Source of the DNA: a virus
Lineage: Duplodnaviria > Heunggongvirae > Uroviricota > Caudoviricetes
Length of the DNA stretch: 37,329 nt
Direction: 5' to 3' (one strand)
IMG/VR virus record: IMGVR_UViG_2850808358_000008
Coordinates: 1-37,329 of that record
In this document: one piece after another, positions 4,109-27,352 of the stretch
How positions within the stretch are numbered: the first letter of the stretch is position 1
Layout: every line of letters starts with the position of its first letter
Program-made: the position numbers and the translations under genes
The notes under the pieces: model-generated
What the model was told of the DNA's origin: nothing
Databases searched by the model: none
What the model saw: the letters and a program-made list of their open reading frames with translations, nothing else

Positions 4109-4216
4109 GAAACCAGAACATGCACACACAAAAAAACCGCTTGCCATGCCTCAATCGGTCAGGTTACATTTCCGCCGCACCTCATAAAACGGGTGCCGGG
4201 ATTTCCACCCCGCTGA

Positions 4217-4420
4217 CAACTACAGCGCACAACCGCGCCAGCGGTTTTTTTGTGCGTACTGTATCGCCACGTCTTTTTCGCACACGAATTATGGTGGGGC
4301 GTACGGGGCCGACTTCGGTCGGGCCGGGTTCTGTAGTTGCCGGTTGTGGAAACCCTGTACGTCTCACCACCCCGAGTTTTCCACCTCTGGATGGTGAGTT
4401 TTCAAAACTTGCAACTACAG
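4217..4420. repeat. Noncoding early region with three copies of the 9-mer CAACTACAG (two direct, one inverted) and a UUCG-loop hairpin
   Basis: CAACTACAG at 4217-4225 and 4412-4420, its reverse complement at 4331-4339, each next to a CACAACC-like motif. GGCCGAC-ttcg-GTCGGGCC hairpin near 4300-4320. Weak hairpin plus T7 run at 4232-4250. No convincing ORF across 4109-4430. Confidence 0.4.
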
Positions 4421-4733: not shown

Positions 4734-5099
4734 ATGATTCTCGCCAACGACTTTCTTGAATACCTGCTCAACACAGAGCGTGATCTTGCCGTTCGCGTGC
4801 GTGAACGTTATGACATGTACCTGAAATCCCTGCCTGTACCGCAGCTCGCTGACGGAAAGATTGTTATTGATGGTCGCTACATGATTGACAGCCACGAGGG
4901 AAATTACAGGCTTTACCGCATTGAAGGTGGCACCCCGTACGTTATTGGCATTTACCAGCGCCCATCCTCTGCAATCGTCGATGTGATTGCCGACAGCATC
5001 CGCATCACACATCGCCATGCCGACACAGAAGACACCGTGCTGGAAATTCAGCGGCTGGCTACAGTCTGCCGCGACACCCTGAATGGCATGACGAAGTAA
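4734..5099 (+). CDS. Hypothetical early protein (121 aa)
   Basis: ORF immediately upstream of A. Confidence 0.5.
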   Translation: MILANDFLEYLLNTERDLAVRVRERYDMYLKSLPVPQLADGKIVIDGRYMIDSHEGNYRLYRIEGGTPYVIGIYQRPSSAIVDVIADSIRITHRHADTEDTVLEIQRLATVCRDTLNGMTK

Positions 5100-5105
5100 A
5101 TCACT

Positions 5106-7726
5106 ATGACGGCAGAGTACATCAGGGACTGGCAACAACCGCGCCACGCAGTGGGGCGTGAAGGAACGGGGATCCCCGCTCCTGAATCCGCGCTTTCCTC
5201 CTGGCTGGATGCTTACCGGGCAGAGAACGAGCGCCGCCAGGAAATGGCTGATGCGGCGTTCTCCGCCACGCCGCTGGGCAACCTGATTAATAAAAGCCTG
5301 GACGCACAGGAAAAACAGGACAAAACCATCACACTGGCAGGAGACGCCAGAAAACAGGCACGCGGCGCGGTGGATGAAGCCATGGCCTCGCTGCGCCTGC
5401 TGCCGTCCTATCTGCGCGATCCGCTTATTCGCCACCTCTCCTTCCTGCGCAAAAAACAGGAAGCCGATCGCCAGAAAGGCAAAAAGAGCTGGCAGGCTGA
5501 ACGCTACGCGCGCGGAACCCTGCGCAAAATATTCGAACGTCTGGACCGCACCGACCACCGCTGGCTGACACGGGGTTATCGCGCCCTTGCCGGACGCGAA
5601 CGCCTGGACGATTTGCTTTACCTGCCGCAGCTCAACAAGCACCAGATACAGACGCTGGCCACCATGACGGCGGCGATGTTCAGCAGCACATTCGAAACAC
5701 TCTGTGATGGCCTTGGTGCCAGAGATGGCGAGCTGACCATGGAGGTGACGCTGAAGGCATATCAGATGCTGGCCCGCATGGCGTTACATCTGCACACCAT
5801 ACCGCCGCATTATGACGCACTGACAACAGACAAAGACCGGAGGAACGAACCGGACACGGAGCTGCTGCCGGGCGCAATCCTTCGCCTGACCTGTGCGGAC
5901 TGGTGGAAACGCAAACTGTGGCTGTTACGTTGCGAGTGGAGAGAAGAACAACTCCGCGCCGCCTGTCTGGTTTCCAGAAAAACATCGCCTTATCTGAGCC
6001 AGGACGCGTTAAGCGAGTTTCGCGCACAGCGCGAGAAAACACGCGATTTCCTGAAAAGTTTCATGCTGGAAAATGAAGACGGGTTCACGATTGATCTCGA
6101 GACAGTGTATTACGCGGGAGTAAGTAACCCGGTTCACCGTAAGGCAGAAATGATGGCCACCATGAAAGGGCGGAACTTATAGCCGAATCCCGTGGCGACA
6201 AAGCGGTGTTTCTGACTGTCACCTGCCCGTCAAAATACCACGCAACAACGGAGAACGGTCATCCGAACCCCAAATGGAACGGGGCTACCATGCGCGATTC
6301 CAGTGATTATCTGGTTAACACTTTTTTTAAAGCCGTTCGTAACAGACTGGACCGCAAGGGCCTGCGCTGGTATGGCATCCGCACGGTGGAGCCTCACCAT
6401 GACGGCACCGTGCACTGGCATATGATGGTCTTTGCCCATCCGGAAGAAATCGACAGCATCGTGACCATCGCCCGCGATATTGCCATTCGTGAAGACCGCC
6501 ACGAGCTGGGCGATGACATAACTCCGCGCTTTAAGGCGGAGTACGTCGACGGTTCGAAAGGTACGCCGACCAGCTATATCGCCACCTACATCGGAAAGAA
6601 CCTGGACAGCCACGCCGTGGATGGCATTGACCCGAAAACAGGCAAACCGCGCATCGACGACGAATCAGGAAAGACGATGGCAGAAAGCGTGGAACGCGCC
6701 ATCGGCTGGGCGCGCCTTCACCGGGTCCGCCAGTTCCAGTTCTTTGGCATCCCCTCCCGTCAGGTATGGCGTGAACTGCGCCGCCTTGCCAGCCAGATGG
6801 CACGCAACCCGGAAGGCCCGCAACGGCTGAAGGATGACGCAATGGATGCGGTTCTTGCTGCCGCTGATGCCGGGTGTTTTGCCACCTACATAGAGAAACA
6901 GGGCGGCGTACTTGTTCCACGTAAGGACTACCTGATTCGCACCGCCTACGACCTCGCAGATGAGCTGAACGATTACGGCGAACAGAGCGTACAGATTTAC
7001 GGGATCTGGTCGCCACTCATCGGGGAATCCTCCCGTGTGTGCACGCATCCGGACAACTGGAAGCTGGTAAGACGTAAACCGGAAGCGGAAGACAGCGCCC
7101 GCGAAAATGGTTTTGACCTTCAGGGCGGCCCTGCCGCCCCTTGGACTCGTGGCAATAACTGTCCCCGTGTACAGGAAACGAACAACAACGGGACAGAACA
7201 GCCGGAAGAACGGCCAGCACTGTGGCCGCAGCTCCCTGACGGCGTTGAAGTGAATGAATGGATGCGCTCACTGAAACGGCACGAACGCCGGGCGCTGATG
7301 CGTTCGCTGCGTGACAAACAGGCAAAAAACAGCAGTGCTGAAATGCAGAACTGGACACAGAGCCGCAAACAGCCACAGCCTTTGCCTGATAACCACGAGT
7401 TACTCGCTAAAGAATGGCGGGAGTCTGCTGAATCCCTTGGCCTGCATATCGGTGAACAGCAGATGCAGCACCTGTTACGGGGCGGCAGTCTGTACGTTGA
7501 CGGCAGCATCATTGCACCGCAGGGATTTGAAATTGTACGCAAACCGGATACCCGCCCGGACAGCCGAATCGCGCAGCTCTGGCAGCGCCTGAGCCGTAAT
7601 CACGGCGTAAGCAGCACGGAGATCCGCCATAACCCGGTCGCCAGCTATCTGGAACAGCTGGGGCATCAGACCCCGAAGCCGCTGCACGCCTGGCATCCAC
7701 ACTTCAGCAGGACCAGAACACCATGA
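5106..7726 (+). CDS. A: Rolling-circle replication initiator, P2 gpA-like, split by an apparent 1-bp deletion in a GGG run at 6168-6170
   Basis: Two ORFs (5106-6182 and 6206-7726) whose reading frame stays open across the junction (ERAELIAESRGDKAVFLTVTCPSKYH). The downstream part carries a metal-binding HWH motif and a YIATY double-tyrosine motif typical of P2 A-type nickases. Confidence 0.8.
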
Positions 7727-8002: not shown

Positions 8003-8962
8003 ATGAAAATTTGTATCGACGACGGCTCCACCAACATCAAGCTGGCATGGACTGAGAACGGCGAACGCCGCAACGCCATCAGCCCGAACAGCTTCAAGTC
8101 GGAATGGTCTGCGCCGTTCGGTGGCTCGCAGCCTGCGAACTACATGCTTGATGGCGTGCGCTATGGTTTTGATCCGGTCAGCGATCGCTTTGTCCAGACG
8201 ACCGACACGCAATACCAGTACAGCGATGTGAATGTAATCGCCATTCACCACGCGCTGGTCAAATCAGGCATCACACCACAGGAGGTGGATGTGGTTGTCA
8301 CCCTGCCACTGAGCGAATATTTCGACACAAACGCACAGCCGGACATGGCCAACATCAACCGCAAAAAAGCGAACGTTATGCGCCCGGTGGAGTACCAGAA
8401 CGGTGAGGCATTCACTATCCGTAACGTGCGGGTTATGCCTGAATCCATTCCGGCTGGCTTTAAAGCACTGGCTGACATGAGTCCGTTTGAATCCCTGCTG
8501 ATTGTGGATTTAGGCGGAACCACGCTGGATGTGGCAAAGGTTCAGGGACAACTGGCAGGTATCAGCCAGGTGTTTTGCGATCCACACGTAGGCGTTTCTC
8601 TGATAGCCGATGCCGTACTGTCGGTGATGGCCACTAACGGTATGCGTACCAGTCACCATATCGCCAATACCATTATCGAACATCGCCGCGATGAAGCCTG
8701 GCTGCGCCAGCACATCCACAATGACGCGCATTACGCCAGCCTGATGACGGTTATTCGTGAAAAGGAAGAAACACTGAAACAACGCGTGATCCGCGCGCTG
8801 GCGGGTTTTTCGGGTTACGGGCGGGTGATGGTTGTCGGTGGCGGGGCGGAGATTGTGGCACCCGCTATCCGCGAAGCCTGCGGAGTTAATGCGACTTTCA
8901 TCGCGGACGGGGTGCCACAGTTTGCTCTGGTTAATGGGCTGTACGCAATGGACAAGGAGTAA
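8003..8962 (+). CDS. parM: Actin-like ATPase of the ParM/StbA family
   Basis: 319-aa ORF. N-terminus MKICIDDGSTNIKLAW and motifs DVNV(I/V)A(I/V)HHAL, MPESIPAG, DLGGTTLD and GGGAE match plasmid R1 ParM as recalled. Confidence 0.8.
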   Translation: MKICIDDGSTNIKLAWTENGERRNAISPNSFKSEWSAPFGGSQPANYMLDGVRYGFDPVSDRFVQTTDTQYQYSDVNVIAIHHALVKSGITPQEVDVVVTLPLSEYFDTNAQPDMANINRKKANVMRPVEYQNGEAFTIRNVRVMPESIPAGFKALADMSPFESLLIVDLGGTTLDVAKVQGQLAGISQVFCDPHVGVSLIADAVLSVMATNGMRTSHHIANTIIEHRRDEAWLRQHIHNDAHYASLMTVIREKEETLKQRVIRALAGFSGYGRVMVVGGGAEIVAPAIREACGVNATFIADGVPQFALVNGLYAMDKE

Positions 8963-9571: not shown

Positions 9572-9874
9572 ATGAGCAGAAAAACCCAACGTTACTCTAA
9601 AGAGTTCAAAGCCGAAGCTGTCAGAACGGTTCTTGAAAATCAACTTTCGATCAGTGAAGGCGCTTCCCGATTATCCCTTCCTGAAGGCACTTTAGGACAA
9701 TGGGTTACCGCCGCCAGAAAAGGGCTCGGTACTCCTGGTTCCCGCACGGTGGCTGAACTGGAATCTGAAATTCTGCAACTGCGTAAGGCGTTAAATGAAG
9801 CTCGCCTTGAGCGAGATATATTAAAAAAAGCAACAGCGTATTTTGCACAGGAGTCGCTGAAAAATACGCGTTAA
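9572..9874 (+). CDS. IS3-family transposase OrfA (HTH / leucine zipper)
   Basis: 100-aa ORF beginning MSRKTQRYSKEFKAEAV. A7 slippery run near 9817-9826 for the usual -1 frameshift into orfB. Confidence 0.85.
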   Translation: MSRKTQRYSKEFKAEAVRTVLENQLSISEGASRLSLPEGTLGQWVTAARKGLGTPGSRTVAELESEILQLRKALNEARLERDILKKATAYFAQESLKNTR

Positions 9875-9909
9875 TCGAACAATGGCGACAACAATTTCCC
9901 ATTGAAGCG

Positions 9910-10727
9910 ATGTGTCAGGTATTTGGTGTATCCAGGAGCGGTTATTACAACTGGGTACAGCATGAACCCTCAGACAGAAAACAAAGTGATGAGCGGCTAA
10001 AACTGGAGATTAAGGTGGCACATATCCGCACTCGCGAAACATATGGAACCCGGCGGCTCCAGACGGAGCTGGCAGAGAATGGCATCATCGTTGGTCGTGA
10101 CCGACTGGCACGTCTTCGTAAGGAGCTAAGGCTACGCTGTAAGCAGAAACGCAAGTTCAGAGCGACTACGAACCCGAACCACAATCTGCCAGTTGCGCCA
10201 AATCTGCTGAACCAGACGTTCGCTCCTACAGCACCAAATCAGGTCTGGGTGGCGGACCTGACGTATGTTGCCACACAGGAGGGATGGTTGTACCTCGCTG
10301 GCATCAAAGATGTTTATACGTGCGAAATTGTCGGCTACGCCATGGGAGAGCGCATGACAAAAGAGCTGACAGGTAAAGCCCTGTTTATGGCGCTCAGGAG
10401 CCAGCGCCCACCTGCCGGGCTAATCCACCACTCCGATCGAGGTTCACAGTACTGCGCATACGATTACCGGGTCATACAGGAGCAGTCTGGTCTGAAAACA
10501 TCAATGTCGCGTAAAGGTAACTGTTACGACAACGCTCCGATGGAAAGCTTCTGGGGAACGCTGAAAAATGAGAGCCTGAGCCACTATCGTTTTAAGAGCC
10601 GGAATGAGGCCATCTCAGTAATACGGGAATACATTGAGATTTTCTACAATCGTCAGCGTCGTCACTCTCGTCTGGGAATATCTCCCCGGCAGCCTTCAGG
10701 GAAAAATATCATCAGATGGCTGCTTAA
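9910..10727 (+). CDS. IS3-family transposase OrfB (DDE), with an apparent 1-bp deletion in a GGG run at 10674-10676
   Basis: DDE-type transposase ORF. The plausible C-terminus (GNISPAAFREKYHQMAA, stop 10725-10727) is in the neighbouring frame; the frame as sequenced instead runs past the IS end to 10812. Confidence 0.75.
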
Positions 10728-10770
10728 AAAAAGAACAAATGGTAGTGTCCGCTATTGCCAGTACACCTCA

Positions 10771-11129
10771 ATCTGCCGCTGCCCGAGGCTATCAAACTTA
10801 TGCGTTCGCTGAAATTTGCGATTTGGATGCAGACACAAATCAACAAAGCGGTGCAAAACACCTTCGTTAAGAGACTAATACCGGAGCTTGCTGCCAGATG
10901 TGCAAAATGTACCAGACCCGCACTTCAATTTGATCTGTCATTGATTCAACAAGCTACGGAGGCAGAACTGTACCGCCTGTCACCTATCCGTGATGCTCAC
11001 ACGGAAGCATCAGAAATGTTCCGGCTCATGTTTCAATTTAATTTTGCCGTTCGACGCACACGCGTTCAGGTCAATCGCATGATGCAGGAGCAGGAAGAGT
11101 TAACACAGTACAAAGGGGGCAGCCAGTGA
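10771..11129 (+). pseudogene. 3' fragment of the IS-interrupted 175-aa hypothetical gene
   Basis: In-frame continuation of 9339-9507 after removing the IS and one copy of the ATC duplication. Confidence 0.6.
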
Positions 11130-21948: not shown

Positions 21949-22845
21949 ATGCCCGCCGTTGACCTTTCACAGTTACCGGACCCCGCCATCATCGCGGAGC
22001 CTGACTTTGAGGCAATTCTGGCTGACACAAAGGCCATGATGATTGCGTCCTATCCCGCCGAACAGCGTGAAGCCGTTTCCGCCGCGCTGGAGCTGGAATC
22101 GGAACCCCTTAACGTTATCGCTCAAACCATGTCGTTTCGTGAAATGCTGTTACGCCAGCGGGTCAATGAGGGTGCACGCGCCTGCATGCTAAGCCACAGC
22201 GCCGGGACAGACCTGGACAACCTCGCGGGCAATATGAACACAAAGCGCCTGGTTATCACTCCGGCAACGGATACCACCGACGCAGTGATGGAAAGTGACA
22301 CCTCGCTGAGACTACGGGCGCAACGGGCATATGACGGTCTGAGTGTTGCTGGCCCGTCAGGTGCATACGAGTATTTTGCACGCAGCGCCAGCGGTCTGGT
22401 GCGTGATGCGCGGGCCATCAGCCCGTCTCCGGCCAACGTGACGGTTTCCATCCTGTCCACTGAGGGCGACGGCACAGCAACGGAGGCGTTGCTTAATACC
22501 GTTCGCGCCGTTCTGAATGCAGAGGATACCCGCCCGGTGGCCGACCGCCTGACCGTACAGAGTGCCAGAATCGTGACATGGCGGCTGAATGCAAAACTGT
22601 ACTTTTACCCCGGCCCGGAATCCGAACCTATTCTGGCTGCGGCGGAATCGTCGTTCAGGAAGTGGCTGGCTGAGCAGGGGCTTATCGGTCAGGACGTGGC
22701 GTTGTCCGCCATTGCTGCCGCACTGCATGTGCACGGTGTGCAACGCGTGGAGATAATCGAACCCACACAGAATATGGCCATCAGCGACATACAGGCGGCG
22801 CGCTGTGAGTCATTCACCATCAGCGAAGGTGGACGCAATGAGTAA
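21949..22845 (+). CDS. J: Baseplate wedge protein, P2 gpJ-like
   Basis: 298-aa ORF after W. Confidence 0.8.
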   Translation: MPAVDLSQLPDPAIIAEPDFEAILADTKAMMIASYPAEQREAVSAALELESEPLNVIAQTMSFREMLLRQRVNEGARACMLSHSAGTDLDNLAGNMNTKRLVITPATDTTDAVMESDTSLRLRAQRAYDGLSVAGPSGAYEYFARSASGLVRDARAISPSPANVTVSILSTEGDGTATEALLNTVRAVLNAEDTRPVADRLTVQSARIVTWRLNAKLYFYPGPESEPILAAAESSFRKWLAEQGLIGQDVALSAIAAALHVHGVQRVEIIEPTQNMAISDIQAARCESFTISEGGRNE

Positions 22846-23368
22846 TTCGTTGTTACCACCATCAGCCAGCAATTTCATGCGTTGTGCCGAAGCCGTCGGA
22901 ACACGCATTACAGACATTCCGGTAGACCTCAACACGCTGTGGTCGCCGGACACCTGCCCGGTGCATCTGCTGCCTTATCTCGCCTGGGCGTTTTCCGTTG
23001 ACCGCTGGGATCGCAACTGGCCGGAAGAGACAAAGCGACAGGTTATTCGTGATGCATGGCTGATACACCGACACAAAGGGACCATCAGCGCACTGCGCCG
23101 GGCCATTGAGCCGCTGGGATACCTCATTCGCGTGTCTGAGTGGTGGGAGTTCGGCGGAGAACCGGGAACATTTACCGTTGAAGTCGGCACGCTGGACAGT
23201 GGCGTGACGGAGGAAATGTATCTGGAAATGGAGCGGTTGATTGCTGATGCCCGTCCGGTCAGCCGCCACATGACAGGGCTGAATATCATTCAGGAAATTC
23301 CGGGGGATATTTTCGCAGCGGCGGCAACTTATGACGGTGAAGTTATTACCATTTATCCGGACGATTAA
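22838..23368 (+). CDS. I: Baseplate protein, P2 gpI-like
   Basis: 176-aa ORF overlapping the end of J. Confidence 0.8.
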
Positions 23369-23370
23369 GC

Positions 23371-25480
23371 ATGAGTACCACAACACGTAAATTTAAAACC
23401 GTTATCACCGATACGGGTGCCAAAAAATTAGCTCAGGCAGCCGCGCCAGATGGTAAGCCTGTCCGCCTGACTCATATGGCCGTGGGCGACGGTGGCGGCA
23501 CGCTGCCCACACCAGACAGTAAGCAGACCCGTCTGGTGCATGAGGTGTGGCGACACACTGTTAATCGCGTCATCCTGGACGCAACACATCAGAACCGCAT
23601 TATTGCGGAGCTGGTTATTCCTCCTGAAACGGGCGGATTCTGGATCCGGGAAATTGGTGTATTTGATGAGCACGGCGATTTAATCGCGGTGGGCAATACT
23701 GCCGAAAGTTACAAACCAGCCGTTGCCGAGGGGTCCGGACGTGCACAAACATTTCGCACCATTCTGACCGTATCCAGCACTGCCACCGTGGCGCTTACCG
23801 TGGATAACACCATGGTGATGGCCACAGTGGATTACGTGGATGACAAACTGAAAGAGCCTGAACAGTCACGACGTCACCCGGATGCCTCGCTGACCGCAAA
23901 AGGCTTTGTTCAACTCAGTAGCGCCACCAACAGCACGTCTGAAGCACTGGCCGCAACGCCGAAAGCGGTCAAGGCAGCCTATGACCTTGCTAACGGGAAA
24001 TATACCGCACAGGACGCCACTACAGCGCGGAAAGGACTTGTCCAGCTCAGTAGCGCCACCAACAGCGATTCAGAAACGCTGGCGGCAACACCAATGGCGG
24101 TAAAGGCAGCATATGACCTTGCTAACGGGAAATATACTGCGCAGGATGCCACCACAGCGCGGAAAGGCCTTGTCCAGCTCAGTAGCGCCACCAACAGCAC
24201 GTCTGAAACGCTGGCGGCAACACCAAAGTCGGTAAAGGCAGCCTATGACCTTGCTAACGGGAAATATACCGCTCAGGACGCTACGACAGCACAAAAAGGA
24301 ATTGTCCAGCTCAGTAGTGCAACCAACAGCGCATCTGAAACGCTTGCTGCGACACCGAAAGCTGTGAAAGCAGCTAATGACAATGCGAATGGTCGGGTAC
24401 CTTCTGCCCGTAAGGTGAATGGTAAGGCGCTTTCAGCGGATATAACACTGACACCGAAAGATATTGGTACGCTTAACTCAACAACAATGTCATTCAGAGG
24501 TGGTGCTGGTTGGTTCAAATTAGCAACGGTAACCATGCCACAGGCGAGTTCTGTTGTTTCAATTACGTTGATTGGTGGCGCTGGATATAACGTCGGTTCA
24601 CCTCAACAGGCAGGTATATCTGAAATTGTTTTGCGTGCAGGTAATGGTAATCCGAAGGGGATTACTGGTGCTTTATGGCAGCGCACATCGGCAGGGTTTA
24701 CAAATTTTGCCTGGGTCAATACATCTGGTGATACTTACGATATTTACGTTGCAATCGGAAATTATGCGACTGGTGTAAATATTCAATGGGATTATACCAG
24801 TAATGCCAGCGTAACGATTCATCCGTCACCAGCATATTCTGCTAATAAGCCGGAAGGGTTAACGGACGGTACAGTTTATTCACTCTATACGCCATCAGAG
24901 CAGTTTTATCCGCCTGGCGCACCAATCCCGTGGCCATCGGATACCGTTCCGTCTGGTTATGCCCTGATGCAGGGGCAGACTTTTGACAAATCTGCCTACC
25001 CGAAACTTGCAGTCGCTTATCCGTCAGGCGTGATCCCTGATATGCGTGGCTGGACGATTAAGGGCAAACCTGCCAGTGGTCGGGCCGTATTGTCTCAGGA
25101 ACAGGACGGCATTAAATCGCACACCCACAGCGCCAGCGCATCCAGTACGGATTTGGGGACGAAAACCACATCGTCGTTTGATTACGGAACTAAATCCACA
25201 AATAACACCGGAGCACATACACACAACTTTGCTTACAACAATACTTCAGCATACGCAGAAACTCCCGGTACCGGTGGTGGAATGCATGCAACTAACACAA
25301 GCAAGACAGCAAGTAATCGCGTATTAAGCGCAGGAGCTCATACTCACACAGTAGCAATAGGTGCGCATACACATACGCTCGCTATTGGTTCGCACACACA
25401 CCATTACCATTGCCGCTTATGGCAACGCGGAAAACACCGTAAAAAACATCGCATTTAACTATATTGTGAGGCTTGCATAA
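23371..25480 (+). CDS. H: Tail fibre protein, P2 gpH-like, with an apparent frame disruption in a (CA)n run near 25393-25402
   Basis: Large ORF after I with an N-terminus like P2 H, internal tandem repeats and a His/Thr-rich AHTHT stretch. The expected C-terminus ([26 protein letters not shown], stop 25478-25480 overlapping the G start) is in the +1 frame relative to the ORF as sequenced, which ends at 25458. Confidence 0.8.
23899..24380 (+). repeat. About 3.6 tandem copies of a 132-bp (44-aa) repeat inside H
   Basis: Units start at 23899, 24031, 24163 and 24295 and encode KG(F/L/I)VQLSSATNS(T/D/A)SE(A/T)LAATPK(A/S)[21 protein letters not shown] with a few substitutions. Confidence 0.85.
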
Positions 25481-26079
25481 TGGCATTCAGAATGAGTGAA
25501 CAACCACGAACCATAAAAATTTATAATCTGCTGGTCGGAACCAATGAATTTATTGGTGAAGGTGATGCATACATTCCACCTCATACAGGTCTGCCTGCAA
25601 ATAGTACTGATATTGCTCCGCCAGATATTCCAGCTGGCTTCGTGGCTGTTTTCAACAGTGATGGGGCGTCCTGGCATCTCGTTGAAGATCATCGTGGTAA
25701 AACGGTTTATGACGTGGCTTCCGGCGACGCGTTATTTATTTCTGAACTCGGTCCGTTACCGGAAAATGTTACCTGGTTGTCGCCGGGAGGGGAATATCAG
25801 AAGTGGAACGGCACAGCCTGGGTGAAGGATACGGAAGCAGAAAAACTGTTCCGGATCCGGGAGGCAGAAGAAACAAAAAACAGCCTGATGCAGGTAGCCA
25901 GTGAGCATATTGCGCCACTTCAGGATGCTGTAGATCTGGAAATCGCAACGGAGGAAGAAATCTCGTTGCTGGAAGCCTGGAAGAAGTATCGAGTGCTGCT
26001 GAACCGTGTTGATACATCAAGAGCACCGGATATTGAGTGGCCAGCTTCCCCAGTGGAATCAAGGAGTAAACAAGCATAA
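25480..26079 (+). CDS. G: Tail fibre assembly chaperone, P2 gpG-like
   Basis: 199-aa ORF whose start overlaps the expected H stop (TAATG). Confidence 0.8.
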
Positions 26080-26173
26080 AGGCTTTCATTTCAAACCATT
26101 GTAGTCCAGTTTTTTGTATAGTACCCTGCTCATTTCGGATGACATGTGTGATTTGGAATTTCAGGGTACCATT

Positions 26174-27352
26174 ATGAATGTTATTTCATCATTAAAACAG
26201 CTTAACAGACAGCGAAATATTAAAACAAAAAAGATAAAGACGAAGGCCAGACTGGCATTTCTAAAAATGCGATACAGAAGGAAAACATCATTACAGCCGG
26301 ATAGTTATAAAACAGTGTGCATTTTCATGCACATGCAAGCCATTGGTGACGGCATCGTTACCTCAGGGTTTATTAAACAACTTCAAAAATCCGGTATGGT
26401 GGTATATGTGATAGCACCTTCAAGAGTATCATTCCTCTTTACTGATATTGTTGGCGTGGATGCCTTTATATCTTACGAGAAAAATAAATTTAACGAACTA
26501 AAAGCAAAGATAAAAAAACTGAATGTAGATCTTGTTGTTGACTTCTCAAATTTTGATAACACAGCGATAACCAGATTGCAAACCCTACATTTACTTAGAC
26601 CTAAACACTCTATCTGTTTTAATCATCCTGCCGTAACTATTTTTGATACAAATATAATCGATAATCGTTCCATTCACACATCTGAAAGAATGAAAAAAGT
26701 TTTATCTTTACTAAAGATAAAAAATAATAATTATGCTGCAGCGCTTAATTTTGACAACAAAATATATGAACCAGCAAATATTGTTGCAAATGAATTCAGG
26801 AAGAAAAACAAAAAATTAGTTATATTTAACCCTTATGGCTCTCAGAATAGCAGAACCTTATCTGATGAACAGATAAACAAAGTACTAGCTTACCTTAATA
26901 ACCTTAAGGGATATCACACAATAGTTTTTAATATGGGAAAACAGATTAATCACAATGGATTGGATAATGTGTCTCTATCTCCATTTTCTGATGCCGGATG
27001 TTCATTTGCATTGGTTCGCCATGCTGATTTTGTTATAACTGTAGATACTGCCATTGTACATTTAGCCAGTGCATTAAACATTAGACAATACTGTATATAT
27101 AATAACAGAATGCATGAAGGAAAATTCGAAAATAATATTGTGTGGGGGCCAAACAGCAAATTAGCGACTCAACTCACCACATCCGAACATCTAAGGTCTG
27201 AAGGGGGCGACGATATGCATAAATTCGACATAATGATCTTAATTAATGCTATCAAACAAGATTTGACAAACGATATACCGAATTACCACTCGGATTTAGG
27301 TTGTAAAAATAGATCCAGAAACCCAGAATTAGAAAGTAGCAATTCTTTATAA
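26174..27352 (+). CDS. Glycosyltransferase family 9 (LPS heptosyltransferase-like) moron
   Basis: Motifs HMQAIGDGIVTSGFI, VIFNPYGSQNSRTLSDEQ and ADFVITVDTAIVHLASALN parallel WaaC/WaaF-type GT9 signatures as recalled. Visibly AT-rich compared with flanking phage genes. Start uncertain; the ORF opens at 26114. Confidence 0.7.
   Translation: MNVISSLKQLNRQRNIKTKKIKTKARLAFLKMRYRRKTSLQPDSYKTVCIFMHMQAIGDGIVTSGFIKQLQKSGMVVYVIAPSRVSFLFTDIVGVDAFISYEKNKFNELKAKIKKLNVDLVVDFSNFDNTAITRLQTLHLLRPKHSICFNHPAVTIFDTNIIDNRSIHTSERMKKVLSLLKIKNNNYAAALNFDNKIYEPANIVANEFRKKNKKLVIFNPYGSQNSRTLSDEQINKVLAYLNNLKGYHTIVFNMGKQINHNGLDNVSLSPFSDAGCSFALVRHADFVITVDTAIVHLASALNIRQYCIYNNRMHEGKFENNIVWGPNSKLATQLTTSEHLRSEGGDDMHKFDIMILINAIKQDLTNDIPNYHSDLGCKNRSRNPELESSNSL

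Follow-up and report, generated by a model that had tools for sequence, protein, structure and literature searches.

A variable-copy PF03406 repeat array in the proximal shaft of a P2 gpH-type tail fibre of a P88/P2-like E. coli prophage

In a P88/P2-like prophage of E. coli, the tail fibre gene very probably contains an in-frame array of the PF03406 tail fibre repeat, made of three full 44-amino-acid units and a partial unit of about 33 amino acids, which lies in the proximal shaft of a P2 gpH-type fibre. Comparison with related loci showed that the copy number of this array differs by whole units, from one to eight, among fibres that are otherwise nearly identical. The prophage was analysed as a 37,329-nucleotide stretch of DNA, the whole of which we call the window (IMG/VR record IMGVR_UViG_2850808358_000008, positions 1 to 37,329), and all coordinates below are positions in it.

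On its gene content, the window reads as a P88/P2-like (Peduoviridae) E. coli prophage, with an integrase at 1-1020, replication gene A, portal, terminase, capsid and tail genes, and gpD at 33048-34286. Among phages it is closest to P88 (Xuanwuvirus, Peduoviridae), and among genomes to E. coli prophages with 98.7% identity. The fibre gene belongs to a series of consecutive plus-strand open reading frames (ORFs) in the order J-I-H-G, the same order as in P88. The features of this region are as follows.

21949-22845, plus strand: gpJ-like baseplate gene (PF04865, Baseplate_J), in the block directly upstream of the fibre gene
22805-23368, plus strand: gpI-like gene (PF09684, Tail_P2_I), directly upstream of the fibre gene
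23371-25458, plus strand: P2 gpH-type tail fibre gene, a 695-amino-acid ORF recognized by Pfam PF12571, four PF03406 stretches and PF07484, and by synteny
23386-23829, plus strand: N-terminal tail-collar/baseplate-attachment domain of the fibre, amino acids 6-153 (PF12571, E = 5.2e-54)
24865-25392, plus strand: distal receptor-binding region related to the T4 gp37 tip, amino acids 499-674, with a collar and a His-x-His needle (phmmer against the PDB)
25480-26079, plus strand: tail fibre assembly chaperone of the gpG/Tfa type (PF02413, Caudo_TAP, E = 8.9e-44), with the same annotation in relatives
26114-27352, plus strand: family 9 glycosyltransferase (GT9), heptosyltransferase-like cargo between the fibre chaperone gene and gpU

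The glycosyltransferase gene occupies the site at which P88 has an invertible fibre segment and an invertase. It is kept in related E. coli prophages and matches PHROG 36326 (function unknown), and a megablast search of 50,697 phage records returned no match to it. One possibility is that its product modifies the lipopolysaccharide (LPS) core and so affects receptor availability. Several other elements were seen in the prophage. A ParM/StbA actin-like plasmid segregation protein is encoded at 8003-8962 on the plus strand (PF06406, E = 2e-82), inside this integrated P2-like prophage, and an IS3-family element at approximately 9572-10812 on the plus strand (ORFs 9572-9874 and 9910-10812, with an rve integrase core and HTH_21) sits between the ParM-like gene and the portal gene. 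Rfam matches above the gathering score were found for isrK (4177-4251) and the C4 antisense RNA (4287-4374, plus strand), which lie beside an Ash-family gene, and for ‘IS009’ (25823-26021, plus strand), which lies within the tail fibre assembly gene.

The initial annotation had located the repeats inside a tail fibre gene, and the three Pfam families and the gene order agree with this. Relatives with 98.7% identity annotate the gene as a ‘phage tail protein’. It has the PF12571 N terminus and the J-I-H-G gene order of the P2 gpH type, and its C-terminal frame is not intact; the fibres of relatives with an intact gene are 703 amino acids long, compared with 695 in the window. PF03406 (Phage_fiber_2, ‘Phage tail fibre repeat’) scored 256.8 bits against a cut-off of 22 (E = 5.4e-78) over four stretches, so that the repeats exceed the gathering cut-off of the family model and are, as its members are, tandem units of about 42-44 amino acids in a tail fibre protein. 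At the distal end, the PF07484 collar covers amino acids 516-563, and amino acids 499-674 matched a solved structure (2xgf, E = 1.2e-59, phmmer). The translation of this region contains the motifs SHTHS, AHTHN, AHTHT (twice) and SHTH. Similarity to a solved tip combined with repeated His-x-His motifs is what characterizes tips of the T4 gp37 type.

The array begins just after the N-terminal attachment domain and forms the proximal shaft of the fibre, which bears out the assignment of the repeats to the shaft in the initial annotation. In a phmmer search against the PDB, fibre protein S of phage Mu (5yvq, residues 102-156) aligned with the terminal unit; in the cryo-EM paper on Mu, the fibre was built for its N terminus only. 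We also modelled amino acids 1-381 as a monomer with AlphaFold2 (AF2), using a 30-sequence alignment. Only the N-terminal domain was confident, with one short helix per unit within repeats that themselves had low confidence (pLDDT 25-46), and a model of this confidence does not yield a rise per unit.

Tandem Repeats Finder delimited the array at 23899-24381, with a period of 132, 3.7 copies, 84% matches, 0% indels and a score of 658, and found no other array in 22000-27000. This is almost exactly the tandem 132-bp array of about 3.6 copies at 23899-24380 that had been described from the sequence at the outset. A separate repeat search recovered three copies spaced by 132 and 132 bp. When the sequence was matched to itself at an offset of 132, 297 of 351 positions agreed, compared with 127 ± 2.7 (maximum 134) at the best-matching offset when the gene was codon-shuffled 100 times. 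The array is in frame with the plus-strand ORF at 23371-25458, its first codon being codon 177, and divides into the following units.

23899-24030, plus strand: repeat unit 1, amino acids 177-220, KGFVQLSS...TTAR (Tandem Repeats Finder, unit HMM and Pfam PF03406)
24031-24162, plus strand: repeat unit 2, amino acids 221-264 (Tandem Repeats Finder and unit alignment)
24163-24294, plus strand: repeat unit 3, amino acids 265-308, ending in ...TTAQ (Tandem Repeats Finder and unit alignment)
24295-24393, plus strand: terminal partial unit 4, amino acids 309 to about 341, the first 33 or so codons of a unit, KGIVQLSS...AANDNANG

The units had been called near-identical, a description that their sequences do not bear out: the full units are only 84-88% identical in DNA (84.1% for units 1 and 2, 87.1% for units 1 and 3, and 87.9% for units 2 and 3) and the fourth is partial. 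Units 1 to 3 differ from one another at 16-21 of 132 positions, the longest exact stretch common to two units is 38 bp, and 40 of 44 amino acids are identical among the three. Unit 4 is 60.6-63.6% identical to the others over 132 nucleotides and 74-76% identical over the first 34 codons, and its alignment with them is lost past approximately column 97, a point that is the exit junction from the array into the distal fibre. Synonymous divergence among the full units is high (dS 0.41-0.69) and the dN/dS ratio is low (0.08-0.14). These values point to old copies under strong purifying selection on the peptide, not to fresh duplicates. An Rfam scan found no RNA family within the array. Three short ORFs inside it (23906-24103 on the plus strand, and 23979-24200 and 24070-24294 on the minus strand) were considered and rejected as by-products of the repeat, as no supporting evidence was found for any of them.

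A comparison of repeat number across related prophages had been proposed as a check, and we carried it out on 80 IMG/VR loci that encode the N-terminal domain, counting units with an HMM built from the units of the window. A list of protein homologues of the N-terminal domain was unfit for this purpose, as all of its entries were 307 amino acids or shorter and most were labelled ‘partial’, and the IMG/VR DNA loci were used in its place. The count was restricted to the 61 complete fibres with an N-terminal domain at least 96% identical to that of the window, and the units were distributed among them as follows.

1 unit: 6 fibres
2 units: 18 fibres
3 units: 27 fibres
4 units: 8 fibres
7 units: 1 fibre
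8 units: 1 fibre

In all 61 fibres the array starts at amino acid 177 and keeps an exact 44-amino-acid register. Fibres that share the same distal domain differ in length by exact multiples of 44 amino acids (659/703, 671/715, 666/798, 775/951 and 656/700/744), and such steps were seen in five classes of distal domain. Part of this survey consists of IMG/VR contigs from draft genomes, in which arrays may be collapsed; the difference between three and four units is also present in complete genomes and phage records. Among complete E. coli genomes, 21 have the array length of the window, with the same four unit peptides, and two have exactly one unit fewer. P88 has three units, and the locus of STEC1585 (L003) is exactly 132 bp shorter than the window.

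The longest arrays carry traces of recent growth. In two IMG/VR loci, L008 and L019, fibre codons 177-518 hold seven and eight units, respectively. Units 3-4 of L008 are 100% identical to its units 5-6, as expected for a duplicated two-unit block, and units 4, 5 and 6 of L019 are mutually 100% identical, as expected for a triplicated unit. Both are freshly expanded arrays. Unit 2 of STEC1585 is a mosaic, in which positions 16 to 60 or so correspond to unit 1 of the window and the ends correspond to unit 3. The units also have signatures specific to their position: the first begins with KGF in all relatives examined, the penultimate ends with ...TTAQ and the terminal begins with KGI. As the first and terminal units keep these signatures, change takes place among the internal units. 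Arrays of one unit are hybrids of the first and terminal units. Together with the signatures, this is what unequal exchange among the internal units should produce.

We therefore favour a reading in which the number of units rises and falls through unequal homologous recombination, gene conversion or slippage from one 132-bp unit to another; sequence cannot discriminate RecA- or phage-mediated crossover from replication slippage. The initial annotation had proposed the array as a substrate for copy-number change and had regarded the idea as not refutable from sequence. Comparison with relatives does test it, and the outcome (1, 2, 3, 4, 7 or 8 units across close relatives, whole-unit steps and identical adjacent units) supports it. 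Each unit would add a fixed increment of length to the trimeric shaft, so that a change in unit number would alter the length of the fibre. Unit number might further act, in P2-type and lambdoid fibres, as a fast-evolving, selected ‘length dial’ that tunes the reach of the receptor-binding tip through O-antigen or capsule of varying thickness. We consider this extension doubtful; it is compatible with the range of one to eight units on attachment domains that are at least 96% identical, with the occurrence of this variation in at least five distal backgrounds and with the 100% identical fresh duplications.

A different account would be that the array is a static structural repeat, composed of ancient fixed units, and that differences between phages arise by swapping of whole arrays without gain or loss of units. 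The age of the window’s units (dS 0.41-0.69) and the stability of its allele across 21 genomes are what such an account would predict. It is nevertheless improbable, as it is hard to reconcile with exact 44-amino-acid steps within the same N-terminal and distal-domain background, with adjacent units or pairs of units that are 100% identical in L008 and L019, with the mosaic unit of STEC1585 and with one-unit arrays that are hybrids of the first and terminal units.

Three genes of the window are interrupted by small frameshifts. In the fibre gene, relatives have (CA)5 where the window has a shorter run:

25393-25401, plus strand: (CA)4 run with a 2-bp deletion, seen as a gap in the pairwise comparison with the E. 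coli strain 165 locus (L002, NZ_CP020509.1)

The deletion at 25393 shifts the frame of the last 25 or so codons, and the conserved gp37-like C terminus is lost. The fibre gene spans 2090 bp in 21 of 21 full-length matches from complete genomes, compared with 2088 bp in the window. The deletion may be genuine, in which case it is an inactivating mutation and changes of the array in this copy would have no phenotype, or it may be an error of sequencing. In the tape-measure gene (27950-30792, minus strand), one base pair is missing from a C run at 28981, which leaves the overlapping ORFs 27950-29251 and 28957-30792, whereas relatives have a single 2808-bp gene. Replication gene A (PF05840, 5106-7726, plus strand) is split into ORFs 5106-6182 and 6206-7726 in different frames; relatives are 2 bp longer across it and annotate a single replication endonuclease. 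Because the fibre, tape-measure and replication genes are all frameshifted and an insertion sequence (IS) element is present, the prophage is either decaying or imperfectly sequenced, a question that bears on any claim that it can be induced. The strain 165 locus, which is most closely related to the window in the fibre region, belongs to a prophage that has itself undergone a deletion: at 5024-5998 a shortened major capsid gene is joined directly to a truncated gene for tail protein I, and the genes between capsid and fibre are absent.

Imperfect sequence raises the question of whether the four-unit array is itself a collapsed or expanded product of assembly. The three small frameshifting deletions relative to relatives could indicate such imperfection, and arrays of this family do break in drafts: in one draft (P0006) a contig ends inside unit 1, in a draft E. 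coli genome (L088, positions 2225-2321; GCA_050009615.1, contig JARLSK010000029.1) a scaffold gap of about 100 Ns lies between identical units and splits the fibre gene into two called genes, and of 120 short homologues in the database, 55 break off within a unit, although that list is biased towards short proteins. The sharing of the array among several prophages per genome probably contributes to such breaks as much as its tandem structure does. For the window itself, an artefact is very improbable. The longest exact stretch between units, 38 bp, is below common read lengths and k-mers, the units differ at 16-21 of 132 positions, the array has no indels or frame breaks, and an array of equal length with the same four peptides is present in 21 independent complete E. 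coli genomes. The warning in the initial annotation that the region is prone to collapse in short-read assemblies is thus borne out by broken drafts across the family and does not extend to this allele, in which collapse is unlikely because the units are 12-16% diverged, share at most 38 exact bases and recur as a four-unit allele in independent complete genomes. We regard the array of the window as, in all appearance, an old and stable four-unit allele and not a misassembly.

Tail fibres are often the targets of programmed diversification, and at the corresponding position P88 carries a DNA invertase together with a fibre segment that can invert. The idea that the array is a target of this kind, whether of a diversity-generating retroelement, an invertase or on/off phase-variable slippage, can nonetheless be set aside as wholly improbable: blastn of the unit against the whole window found the array alone and no second, template-like copy; the ORFs scanned, a part of those in the window, showed no reverse transcriptase; no invertible segment of the Gin/Cin/Pin type known from P88, Mu and P1, no invertase and no inverted alternative fibre segment is present here, the downstream order being Tfa, GT9 glycosyltransferase and gpU; an inverted-repeat search found nothing meaningful flanking the array; and the unit is intragenic, free of indels and, at 132 bp (44 codons), a multiple of three, so that changes in unit number preserve the frame, which is not how a phase-variable contingency repeat behaves.

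The array also coincides with the point at which this fibre gene changes its relatives. The gene is matched in 4,076 of 5,426 complete E. coli genomes, with a median of two and a maximum of 17 sites in each. Lambdoid side tail fibre (Stf) genes, which lie downstream of gpJ and lom and have a PF08400-type N terminus, account for many of the matches. These genes share the array and the distal part with the window’s gene at approximately 94% identity and carry four or three units. Homology to them begins 9 nucleotides into unit 1, 2 or 3. Similarity to P88 breaks off within unit 3, and that to phage 503458 reaches as far as the end of the array. The distal part was also found in the Stf of a P1-like phage, and in relatives the transition from the array to different, unrelated distal domains falls at unit position 34, 36 or approximately 33. 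The array is the left boundary of a module common to the P2-type fibre and the lambdoid side tail fibres. The conserved unit may act as a recombination linker, through which distal modules for receptor binding and host range would move between unrelated phages. This role as a module junction, like the catalogued Pfam status of the repeat, had been missed in the initial annotation.

Exchange of this kind has precedents. Tail-fibre modules are reportedly exchanged among unrelated phages at conserved motifs, as Haggard-Ljungquist et al. are said to have described in 1992 (J Bacteriol), and Sandmeier in 1994 (Mol Microbiol) is likewise said to have described their horizontal exchange among unrelated phages at such motifs. 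The present case resembles those in that homology between the P2-type fibre and the lambdoid Stf genes starts exactly at the repeat array; what the survey adds is the count of units, from one to eight, among near-identical fibres, on which we found no statement in the searchable literature.

The repeat itself is an already known family, long catalogued and behaving here as expected. PF03406 (Phage_fiber_2, InterPro IPR005068) is present in the P2 H, Mu S and P1 S fibres. The Pf2 domain was first identified in the lambda Stf protein, its structure and function being little known (PMC3368898). A search of the literature on PF03406 or on copy-number variation of fibre repeats yielded domain listings and a single statement, that Pf2 is structurally uncharacterized. 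All four units of the window match the family, and there is essentially no difference between this array and known PF03406 systems, of which it is one four-unit allele of a widespread array: a P2 record has the same layout with three full units and a partial one, and the lambdoid Stf proteins, as PF03406 relatives, have three to four.

Measured against the P88 and P2 systems of gpH with its gpG/Tfa chaperone, the window’s fibre has an N-terminal domain 99.4% identical to that of P88, the same J-I-H-G order and the array in the same position. The distal half is unlike that of P88 and has instead a T4 gp37-like tip with His-x-His motifs, which is common to the lambdoid Stf genes and the P1-like phage. 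P88 combines three units with an invertible segment and invertase, whereas the window combines four units with a GT9 glycosyltransferase gene at that site, and the window’s gene, unlike gpH of P2 and P88, is frameshifted at its 3′ end. A broader parallel is found in bacterial surface proteins, which have intragenic tandem repeats of variable copy number, for example in Legionella (PMC2639597). In both cases the units stay in frame and their number differs from strain to strain by recombination or slippage; the array described here differs in that it lies in a phage structural gene and has long, 132-bp units that are 12-16% diverged in the window’s allele.

Because the repeat has long been recognized in the fibres of P2, Mu, P1 and lambda, its detection in this prophage has little discovery value in itself. 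For annotators, the variation in unit number means that length differences of whole multiples of 132 bp are to be expected among the fibre genes of P2-like and lambdoid prophages, as are breaks in draft assemblies wherever units are identical. For the fibres themselves, the array would be a natural exchange junction of receptor-binding modules, and as such may be useful for the design of chimeric fibres in phage or tailocin engineering.
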